A stretch of DNA of 15,065 nucleotides from a virus (Duplodnaviria > Heunggongvirae > Uroviricota > Caudoviricetes), in the IMG/VR virus record IMGVR_UViG_2534682325_000026. The stretch is one strand, 5' to 3'. The position numbers are program-made. Shown here piece by piece: positions 12,001 to 15,065 of the stretch. The stretch's first letter is position 1, and each line of letters starts with the position of its first letter.

Positions 12001-15000
12001 TACGTGGAGCTTACGAGCGAGCAGGACAAATCTGCCCGTGGGCGTACTGGAATGACCACGATGTACGCACGATCGTTACGCTTGGGCGTTCCATCGGATT
12101 CGACCCCAAAATGGACATGCCTTTCGATGGCGAACGGCACAACGCCCTGGCTGATGCCCGTCATCAGGCAAAATATGTTTCCGCTATCTGGCAGAAATTA
12201 ATTCCTGCCACCAGCACAGAATTATGATTTTCCCGGGTGCAGCCGGTTTTGATGGAGAAAATTATGAACACCTTGTTTTTACTGATGGCTGAATTCAATA
12301 CCCCAAACATTGAACTCTCAGCAGTTAGCCAAAAGTACTTTGGTATGAGTCCAGCCACGGCAGAAGCAAAAGCAAACGCTTGTAAGTTGCCCGTTCCAAC
12401 ATATCGCATCGGCACATCACAAAAAGCAAAACGTTGCATCAATATTCAAGATCTTGCGGAATACATAGACAAAAGGCGAGAAGAAGGACGTATCGAGTGG
12501 GAACAGGTCAGAACAGTCAAACAGAAGGACAAAGAACATCACTAAAGAAAAAACCCGCCTGAAGGCGGGTTTTCAAAAAGCACCAGCTATGATCATGCTG
12601 CTTTGCGACGACGAAGCTTACCCTGCTGCTCTTTACCAGAGACAGTAGCGTGAGTGAACGCATTAGGAGCAGCCTTCATCAGAACTTCAACAGCAGCACC
12701 CATACCTGCGAATGCTTTCATTGTGTCGAACTTAACCTGTGGCTTGGTTGCTTTTTGATCTTTCATAGAAAACTCCCGAGACAGTAAAGGCGTCTCTAAC
12801 CCTTTCTTTAAAGCTAGCTTGTTTCGCTAACTTATGCCAATCGATCATGTCGATTGGTGACATCGTTTCTTAGTAGTTTAAGCACAAAACGACTGCCATA
12901 GATGTACCTTTAAGGTAATCTGGACGGGTATCCTACAATTTGTAGACCCTTCTCGTCTATACCTACTGAGCAAATTTAAGAAAGATATCCTGCAGCTCAT
13001 CAATGACTGCCGACATCACATAACCGCACTGTTCCATGCGGAAACCAAAAGACTCGTAATACTGCACCAGTTCTGGTACTGGCTCTACAATGTGGACAAC
13101 TTTACATTCAACAGCTTTACAAAATATAAAAGCACTCATAAGAGTGAGTAAAACCATGCGCCCTTTCAATGGGTGAGATTCATCTTCTCTAGAAAACCTT
13201 TCGATCATATGGATACGAAAGATGTTTTCTTCAACCCCATAAACACAAATTGCTGCTCCTGATGGTATTCCCTGAACCCGACCTTGCTGAACAAGTTTTA
13301 TGCAGAACTCATACTTTTCTCTGGAGTTGCCATAGGTACTTAACGCATAGTCCCATTCAAGCTCACCATAGCCACCACACAGAATCTTGTAATCATCATC
13401 ACTGAGCGGACCAACAGCAAGAGGTAAGCCGACATGATCAATAATCAACTGGATATTGTTACGTACTGATTGACCTATCTCGTCCAGGGTAAGCATCATG
13501 GCCTCTCAAGCGGAACACTAAAAGTCGCATTATATCTCATTCTTAAGCCGCGTATGGATTACACCTTGAAATGAAAACGCCGGGTTCCCAATAGGCTCCC
13601 ACAAAGTATATAACTATTTGTTTTTCAAAAACGGTACATCCTATCGAGCATTGGTGCAACGCTAAACCGACCACTCCAGTGAACGTCAGTTTTTTCAGGC
13701 ATTGCGCTGGTTTGGTTGATTTTTTGCATTTCAGAATTACCGTGCATTTTCAAATGTAGAGATTATTTTATCGATATATCATGTGGTTATGTTATTCAGC
13801 ATCACTGTTCAGGAGGCTCAATAACGGGGTACTATACCATAACAACAGGAAGCGCCTGTCTCATTGCAAAAGAAAATTGAGATCCTCTCAAGGCATGAAG
13901 CTCTCACGAAGTGAATATCTAATCTTATTAGATGTTAGCGTTGTGAAAAGCAATGATAAACAATACAGATTCGACGATAAATAAAAATCACACATTAAAC
14001 TCCGGTGATATCTCTCCCTGCTAATAGCACTGATAGAGAAAAAAAGAACCCAATAAACATTGGGTTCTTTTATGTAATACCTTTCATACCATCGAAGAAC
14101 TTCACATATTATTTCTCCGATTTAACCCCGAATAAATCATAAATTAATTTAGAAGTGCCTGTATATATTTTAATCTTTTCCTTTGAGTTTGGGTCAAACG
14201 ACTTAGCAAAGTCAATTAATTTCGGTGCAGCATCTCGCATTTTGCTTAAAATATCAGGGGCGAGCGTTCCTTCATTCACCAGATGTGACATCTTATCCAG
14301 ATAGCCATCAAAATTCATTTCTCCCCCATCTGCCAGACGCTTCATCTCTCCCAGGTACTTCTTCATATCACGTTGAGATAATTCTTCAAACTGAGCTTTC
14401 AGGTAGTTATCATTATATTCATTAATATTCACTCTTCCTGCAAAATCTGAGTAGACACTAGAATATGAAAGGGAAATTAACAGCGAAGCAAATAATTTTA
14501 AGCTGTTGTCATCATGTTCCTGGCAGGCATTAACAAACGTTAAGAAACCAGAACCTATTGCTTGCAAATGTATATTCGCTAAAGGTTCATTATCTTTAGA
14601 TTCCTCATAAAATAGCTGAACCGTGGAGGGAAGACCATTCTTGGTTTCTACATCAAAAGTACATCGTTCTATGAGTGTCGCATCTTTATTATCCTCGGGA
14701 TTACATATACTATTAATCGCGAAATGAAAAATAGCCCTGTCAACAACTGATGCAATAAATTCACGATCGTTTAATTCCTCATCAGTACAATCTCCAATAT
14801 ACTCATTGACACACATTTTGAGATCGTTTATTTGCTTAATTAACGTCACATTTTTTTCACGTGCAGTCCATAAATTATGAGTGATTCTTTGAATAAATAA
14901 ATCTATTTTTGCAATAATTATATCCCGATGACGCATCGTTGAATAATCAATAGATTTACCATATATACTATTTACTTTACCTTTGATTGCATCTTCATTA

Positions 15001-15065
15001 TCGAATTGATTTGAATTGAGTGTTTTATTAAAGTATCCTGTTGCACCGGGTATTATCTTTAACAT

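Follow-up and report, generated by a model that had tools for sequence, protein, structure and literature searches.

The AT-rich flank of a dusA prophage remnant in Escherichia coli O157:H7 carries an intact DUF2713 gene at the yjbL-yjbM locus

A single gene beside the dusA prophage remnant

The window (the whole stretch of DNA analyzed, 15,065 nucleotides of the IMG/VR record IMGVR_UViG_2534682325_000026) is typical of O157:H7 chromosomes whose dusA harbours a degenerate lambdoid prophage remnant. The cargo of this remnant consists of three nleG genes, tail-fibre, Lom and J fragments, and an IS, and its attR junction in the window is common to 335 genomes. The remnant itself fits the dusA-targeting integrative elements, reportedly described by Farrugia et al. 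in 2015, in its integrase, its replaced dusA 5′ end, and its displaced original 5′ end. The displaced end had been recognized in the first-pass annotation made from the sequence alone, and it proved identical to the 5′ end of uninterrupted O157 dusA; with the RefSeq start codon at 13747, its translation gives 35 residues. The features discussed below are collected in table 1.

The same annotation had described the DNA to the right of this end as strikingly AT-rich, with a large ORF that stops at a strong bidirectional terminator, and these three observations hold. Positions 13754–15065 contain 34.5% GC against 52.9% for dusA in the same window (GC3 58.4%), and they encode a single long minus-strand ORF (34.1% GC, GC3 28.8%) of 318 codons. 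Because 318 stop-free codons would arise by chance with a probability of only about 3e-12 at this base composition, at which stops should occur about once per 12 codons, the ORF is a real gene. Over positions 13751–15065, many O157:H7 chromosomes have exactly the DNA sequence of the window (100% identity) and carry the annotation "DUF2713 family protein" for the gene.

Two other statements had to be corrected. The protein had been given as at least 318 amino acids long and cut by the window edge, but the window ends exactly on the ATG, and an uninterrupted O157 genome shows a TGA in the same frame two codons upstream of it, which fixes the length of the protein at exactly 318 amino acids. The RefSeq annotation agrees (a CDS of 957 nt), and what lies off the window is the promoter region only. 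The protein had also been said to contain no recognizable motif, whereas its residues 84–318 match the Pfam family PF10897 (DUF2713), a family without assigned function, with an E-value of 1.4e-143 and 477 bits (gathering cut-off, 27).

The gene order in O157 is pspG-dusA-DUF2713-zur-yjbJ-dinF-lexA, and the succession dusA, DUF2713, zur is found in O157, in K-12, and in strains 2D and 98228. In K-12, the equivalent position is occupied by yjbL (b4047, 84 aa) and yjbM (b4048, 235 aa); the annotations of O157 FORC_044 and K-12 MG1655, together with a DNA alignment of the loci, confirmed that the position between zur and dusA is orthologous. Pairwise alignment of the window with NC_000913.3 gave about 92% DNA identity over 13751–15065 and revealed two differences: a 30-bp in-frame insertion in an N-terminal repeat, and a 1-bp deletion, which is the loss of the G at 14858 and shifts the frame so that the gene is split into yjbL and yjbM, whereas the window's gene is one intact ORF. 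The frameshift recurs in many K-12-like genomes, in which RefSeq uses the label "DUF2713 domain-containing protein". The K-12 yjbL/yjbM pair is thus, by sequence comparison, one gene in a broken form. Because the Pfam model was built on the YjbM part of the split K-12 gene, it describes the protein only over its C-terminal 235 residues. One published description of YjbL as belonging to the "response regulator family", which cites UniProt (PMC12871917), received no support in our Pfam scan.

Downstream of the gene, 38 nt past its stop codon, lies a hairpin with a 13-bp stem and a 4-nt loop, that is, the combination of hairpin and U tract after a stop codon that characterizes Rho-independent terminators. 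On the minus strand, its folding energy is −17.9 kcal/mol (z = −4.2) and it is followed by U7; on the plus strand, it folds nearly as well (−16.2 kcal/mol) and is followed by U4. Because no plus-strand gene converges on it, its role would be to end the minus-strand transcript ahead of the dusA promoter region. A search of the intergenic DNA for noncoding RNAs with Rfam gave only subthreshold matches, on this same hairpin.

The limits of the AT-rich DNA were obtained by comparing an occupied site (L001, 8096–9507) with the empty sites of HH97 (L004) and CFT073 (L014). This defines a block of 1,412 bp with 34.1% GC, against 53% in the flanks, the shift taking place within about 200 bp. Such sharp edges and a GC content far below that of the host are as expected of H-NS-silenced xenogeneic DNA. 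On the dusA side, the block has its limit 94 bp upstream of the start of dusA, outside the att core located in dusA. Its gene content is the one ORF, which is not an integrase, and the comparison of occupied with empty sites gave neither a flanking att repeat nor a clear duplicated att core. The short segment between dusA and the block (13754–13845) is 97–99% identical between allele classes and is not part of the block, because it is retained in genomes that lack the block.

Table 1. Features of the right-hand part of the window, with the integrase of the dusA element.
Feature	Position in the window	Strand	Basis or remark
Tyrosine integrase of the dusA element	1668–2765		Belongs to the prophage remnant, not to the block
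Displaced original dusA 5′ end (attR context)	13644–13753	−	Identical to the uninterrupted O157 dusA 5′ end
Native dusA upstream region	13754–13845	.	Retained beside the empty site in HH97
AT-rich insertion/deletion block	13846–15065 (1,220 of 1,412 bp), extending to about 15257 beyond the window	.	Occupied versus empty sites
Intrinsic terminator of the DUF2713 transcript (predicted)	14042–14071	− (also foldable on +)	Hairpin + U7
DUF2713 family CDS, 318 aa, complete (WP_000912588.1)	14109–15065	−	Sole long ORF; equivalent of K-12 yjbL + yjbM
Pfam PF10897 (DUF2713), K-12 YjbM part, residues 84–318	14112–14816	−	Profile positions 1–235 of 235
G deleted in K-12 (ORF nucleotide 208), intact in the window	14858	−	Alignment with NC_000913.3
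Variable repeat site: 30 extra bases in K-12-type alleles, 9-bp repeat CAATCAAAG on the flanks	Between 14990 and 14989	−	Alignment
Predicted disordered Ser/Thr/Asn/Gln-rich N-terminus, residues 1–43	14937–15065	−	pLDDT < 50

Distribution and allelic divergence in E. coli

The flank was matched in 4,303 of the 5,426 complete E. coli genomes (about 79%). A probe on the CFT073 junction, where a gene-free stretch of 155 bp separates dusA from zur, detected the empty site in 1,123 of the 5,426 (about 21%), including ST131; the two counts add up to exactly 5,426. A probe on the HH97 junction identified a second, rare type of empty site, set within K-12-like flanks, in HH97 and HH45. We had considered that the gene might be near universal with two empty genomes, and this was ruled out, the CFT073 junction being a different flank haplotype carried by 1,123 genomes. 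The CFT073-type and HH97-type empty haplotypes share the filler ATATGCGA at the exact position of the block, bounded by CATAAC(A/G)A on one side and by (C/T)CAGGCAA on the other. Because independent recent deletions would not recreate an identical filler, the empty site is an old haplotype. Insertion of the block therefore appears simpler than an ancient deletion that subsequently spread, an argument drawn from the filler common to both empty haplotypes.

Apart from a few remote paralogues on IS-rich contigs, no relatives turned up outside E. coli. A database of 5.8 billion proteins, searched twice, gave almost exclusively matches named E. coli, among which full-length clusters dominate, and of 185,579 species, each scanned through one genome, only E. 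coli/Shigella was positive. Neither these searches nor a profile search of 1.84 billion representatives yielded an orthologue outside E. coli/Shigella. The first-pass annotation had judged from the base composition that the DNA looked horizontally acquired, and the data bear this out: the AT-rich DNA is a discrete block of 34.1% GC, its distribution is patchy, as is the case for xenogeneic DNA (empty site in 1,123 of the 5,426 genomes; only E. coli/Shigella among species representatives and in protein libraries), and the genes next to the zur/yjbL spacer of K-12 were foreign in two independent predictions, that of Nakamura et al. and that of Lawrence and Ochman (PMC3661553, Table 1). In addition, yjbL-yjbM has been placed in a young phylostratum (PMC12218254).

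The occupied sites fall into deeply divergent allele classes. When O157 is compared with strain 2D or strain 98228 in 100-nt windows, dusA and zur are 97–100% identical and the block only 55–75%. The proteins of these allele classes share 49–51% identity with that of the window, and between classes dS reaches 0.50–0.74 with dN/dS ratios of 0.44–0.53 (the copy of the "Shigella flexneri" species representative, L008, which is riddled with frame breaks, was left out of this calculation). Such dS values are far beyond the usual within-species level, and relaxed constraint cannot explain the divergence because synonymous sites are affected too. Taken at face value, these sequence comparisons would imply either that the alleles are very old or that they were imported from diverged donors and exchanged through the conserved flanks. 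An open frame of 318–340 codons is present in every deep allele class, the alleles of 318, 328, and 338–340 aa differing in how many copies of a decapeptide-like repeat they carry at the N-terminus. Constraint on the gene is thus real but weak: with a dN/dS close to 0.5, a frameshift in K-12, and loss from B2-type strains, the gene may contribute little.

The protein and its remote relatives

The product is an acidic (pI 5.2), soluble, and mostly helical protein of 36 kDa with no membrane segment. Its AlphaFold model (pLDDT 75.4, pTM 0.74) has a predicted disordered and polar N-terminus (table 1) and matched no solved fold; the best hit of a sequence-profile search against the PDB had an E-value of only 0.3. 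NCBIfam and PADLOC gave no match, and we saw no conserved catalytic-type motif in the protein, nor any nuclease, ATPase, protease, or other effector-type domain, nor a partner gene. Comparisons with known effector families revealed neither sequence nor fold similarity. The only PHROGs matched were 29005 and 28007, both of unknown function and composed of the DUF2713 gene itself. In the literature, we found no paper that mentions the DUF2713 family and none that links yjbM with H-NS by name.

A HMMER profile search of the 1.84 billion representatives detected eight remote relatives (19–26% identity), all of which keep the full-length architecture; those that bear a name are all labelled E. coli. 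The joint alignment of these eight proteins is too diverse to serve as a query. They lie on short, IS-rich contigs and were absent from the 5,426 complete E. coli genomes, from plasmids, and from two metagenome scans. One of these paralogues adjoins hok and an AIDA-type autotransporter gene, and another lies among ISL3 fragments with a second, truncated copy. A third, P0155, which also adjoins kfrA, is located 1.4 kb from a gene that combines a SopD-type N-terminal domain with pentapeptide repeats, a putative PipB2/EspX-like architecture. The share of Ser, Thr, Asn, and Gln in the first 30 residues is 27–47% in all subfamilies and close to that of the three NleG effectors of the window, although this criterion is non-specific; the AT content of the ORF is likewise near that of the nleG genes.

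Origin of the block and possible roles of its gene

Taken together, these data indicate that the flank is most probably the yjbL-yjbM locus, specific to E. coli and intact in the window: a single 318-aa DUF2713 gene in a 1.4-kb block of 34% GC between dusA and zur. The locus as such is already known and annotated, and published work has used yjbM to mark the flank of the dusA prophage site (PMC10562709, PMC8065619). The first-pass annotation had instead suggested a second island using the same hotspot, and had named as the observation that would speak against it a conserved native neighbour of dusA with a known function in all strains. The gene is indeed the native neighbour in about 79% of genomes, but it is not present in all strains, and no function is known for it. 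A second mobile island is nevertheless very hard to reconcile with our results. The proximity of AT-rich DNA to an att site could be taken in its favor, as could the matches to PHROGs 29005 and 28007, which show that the gene has been swept into prophage predictions. However, the block begins 94 bp upstream of dusA and outside the att core, it consists of one gene with neither integrase nor repeats, and, unlike the dusA-targeting elements, it is present regardless of any insertion: O157 FORC_044 has no dusA island and yet carries the identical DUF2713 gene. This 100% identity in O157 with and without the element means that the AT-rich DNA is independent of the dusA island. Moreover, none of 50,697 phage records contained a match, and the matches in plasmid collections were mislabelled chromosomes or chromosome fragments rather than true plasmids. 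The PHROG matches are thus best read as prophage-boundary miscalls, and yjbL-yjbM as the usual chromosomal neighbour of dusA, in agreement with its use as a marker of the flank (PMC10562709).

Published data on K-12 also point to foreign DNA at this locus. Just past the window edge is the position of the zur/yjbL spacer, which in K-12 counts among 78 "promoter islands" and shows H-NS binding in every ChIP data set (PMC3661553, Table 1). The block resembles H-NS-silenced xenogeneic genes and such islands in being AT-rich, species-restricted, predicted foreign, and preceded by an H-NS-bound region in K-12 (PMC3661553); it differs from most H-NS-silenced loci, which are multi-gene islands or prophage remnants, in that it comprises one gene whose alleles have diverged very deeply. 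We infer that the block is old, H-NS-bound foreign DNA (the H-NS data being those of K-12), now a normal but dispensable component of the chromosome in most E. coli. In this scenario, old xenogeneic DNA would have been inserted into the ancestral dusA-zur spacer, and its alleles would later have been swapped by recombination through the conserved flanks. Minus-strand transcription would start in the H-NS-bound, AT-rich promoter island, so that yjbL-yjbM would normally be silenced, as the K-12 literature suggests, and the transcript would end at the 14042–14071 hairpin, so that read-through would be kept out of the dusA promoter.

An acquired gene that has outlived its usefulness and disappears from one lineage after another would account for the frameshift in K-12 and in many K-12-like genomes, for its absence from 1,123 genomes, for the relaxed constraint (dN/dS 0.44–0.53), and for the reported binding of the locus by H-NS. 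We nevertheless find such a decaying relic rather unlikely, because 318–340 codons have stayed open in all deep classes despite dS values of up to 0.74 in DNA of 34% GC, dN/dS is clearly below 1, and the full-length architecture is retained in remote paralogues. The gene might also encode a type III effector-like protein secreted by the LEE or ETT2 system. It resembles type III effectors (NleG, PipB2/EspX-like) in its AT-richness, in the predicted disordered, polar N-terminus of its product (43 residues), and in the IS-rich contexts of its paralogues, and one can add the S/T/N/Q content of the first 30 residues, the proximity of P0155 to the SopD-type/pentapeptide-repeat gene, and the occurrence of other paralogues among IS, hok, and the AIDA-type autotransporter gene. 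On the other hand, DUF2713 has neither sequence nor fold similarity to known effectors, it is present in non-pathogenic strains, including K-12-type commensals, and no chaperone or secretion-system gene is adjacent to it; the N-terminal composition is a weak and non-specific indication, and the paralogue context is that of a single contig. Secretion of this kind thus appears doubtful.

Deep allele classes combined with presence/absence polymorphism and a variable repeat copy number form a pattern typical of loci exposed to phages or competitors. From this angle, the gene could be a single-gene determinant of anti-phage defence or inter-bacterial competition under frequency-dependent selection, and the deep classes within near-identical flanks, the presence/absence polymorphism, and the variable copy number of the N-terminal repeat would be in line with such a role. 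The lack of any PADLOC match, of a nuclease, ATPase, protease, or other effector-type domain, and of a partner gene, as well as the reported silencing of the locus in K-12, make it very unlikely, however. If we had to propose a function, our conjecture would be an accessory factor that binds proteins, has no enzymatic activity, meets different partners in different lineages, and is perhaps exported like a type III effector. A lineage-variable partner would explain both the diversity of alleles and the dispensability of the gene in K-12 and B2-type strains. This functional guess draws on the polar disordered N-terminus, the allele diversity, and the neighbourhood of one paralogue; the idea of export draws on the N-terminal composition and on one remote paralogue located beside an effector-like gene. 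A bolder reading, to which we give little credence, is that DUF2713 founded, from the chromosome, a small protein family restricted to E. coli whose fold is absent from solved structures. Frequency-dependent selection would then maintain its deeply diverged alleles because the protein meets a variable partner, for example in the role of an unrecognised secreted effector or of a determinant that faces phages or competitors. Were this true, the dusA-zur spacer would be a site of recombinational allele exchange rather than a passive relic.

For the much more probable reading, an intact yjbL-yjbM locus in old foreign DNA, the consequences are more immediate. Annotations should treat the DNA on the right-hand side of the dusA att site neither as belonging to a mobile element nor as a second one, and PHROGs 29005 and 28007 seem to stem from counting this flank as mobile. 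The real unit is a protein of 318–340 aa, and both the yjbL/yjbM pair and the Pfam model describe a broken gene. The present analysis provides a corrected gene model, the exact limits of the block, the 79%/21% split of genomes with a filler shared by the empty sites, and the depth of allelic divergence. It indicates no new mechanism; yjbL-yjbM illustrates in compact form an orphan gene confined to one species, and the locus lends itself to studying how foreign genes that H-NS silences are maintained and diversify.

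Content and decay of the dusA element

The element integrated in dusA is a decayed rather than an intact prophage, because it combines lambdoid remnants with an IS3-family transposase that comes after them. These remnants comprise a gene for a tail fibre, whose collagen-like repeats account for the 67% GC peak at window 5800-6400, another for a Lom/Ail outer-membrane protein, and the coding sequence for the C-terminal portion of tip protein J. Also located within the element are genes for NleG-family products of 213, 209 and 192 aa, with a GC content of 37-42%. For the ORF directly inside attR, no Pfam match was found at E≤0.001.

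Features of the dusA-integrated element (window coordinates)
Feature	Position	Strand	Database match
Three tandem NleG-family type III effector genes	3236-5239	minus	Pfam T3SS_NleG, E about 1e-44 to 1e-47
Lambdoid prophage remnants	5616-8314 and 9059-10272		
178-aa ORF directly inside attR	12963-13499	minus	RefSeq: hypothetical protein

Variants and relatives of the DUF2713 gene, and its matches in PHROG

The N-terminal length variants of the DUF2713 protein (318, 328 and 338-340 aa) are accounted for by 30-bp units that have a 9-bp direct repeat, CAATCAAAG, on either side (window 14989-14990; about 4398-4427 in L002, the K-12 locus). Such an arrangement points to gain and loss within the disordered N-terminal region through slippage or a microhomology-mediated process.

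We also identified two remote paralogues on a single metagenome contig (L010, 1077-1601 and 4175-5455), one of them truncated and adjoining ISL3 fragments. Both have an additional domain at the N-terminus, roughly 130 aa long and with the motif FF(Y/H)KL(D/E)FLLKYG, for which no Pfam match was found. Another copy, in the species-representative genome whose record is titled Shigella flexneri SFBU0723 (L008, 5001-5997), has its frame broken at many points and contains no ORF as long as 60 aa; these breaks reflect either real gene decay of the Shigella type or an indel-rich assembly.

Two 'phage' protein families, both of unknown function, match this chromosomal gene: PHROG 29005 its YjbM part (E=2e-148) and PHROG 28007 its YjbL part (E=3e-21). 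The gene itself was not found in any phage genome record, and the two families probably stem from prophage predictions that ran too far at the dusA site.

Block ends, intergenic region and empty sites

Similar short strings lie at both ends of the 1412-bp AT-rich block, GGTACT...CAGG on the left (window 13830-13849) and GGTACTG followed by CCAGG on the right (9497-9515 in L001, the occupied-site locus); they may represent a degenerate target duplication or have arisen by chance. Between dusA and the DUF2713 gene, window 13915-14010 shares only 83-84% identity with each of the three compared strains, K-12 included, so that the O157 lineage has its own variant immediately downstream of the terminator.

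The 5' end of dusA differs in empty-site genomes (CFT073, L014 2033-2260). There, the upstream region is much shorter and the annotated DusA has 331 aa and begins with MPAESHTLF..., versus 345 aa and MHGNSEM... This difference could be a scar left by an element that targeted dusA earlier and replaced its 5' end; if so, the AT-rich block and an island might have been lost in a single event.
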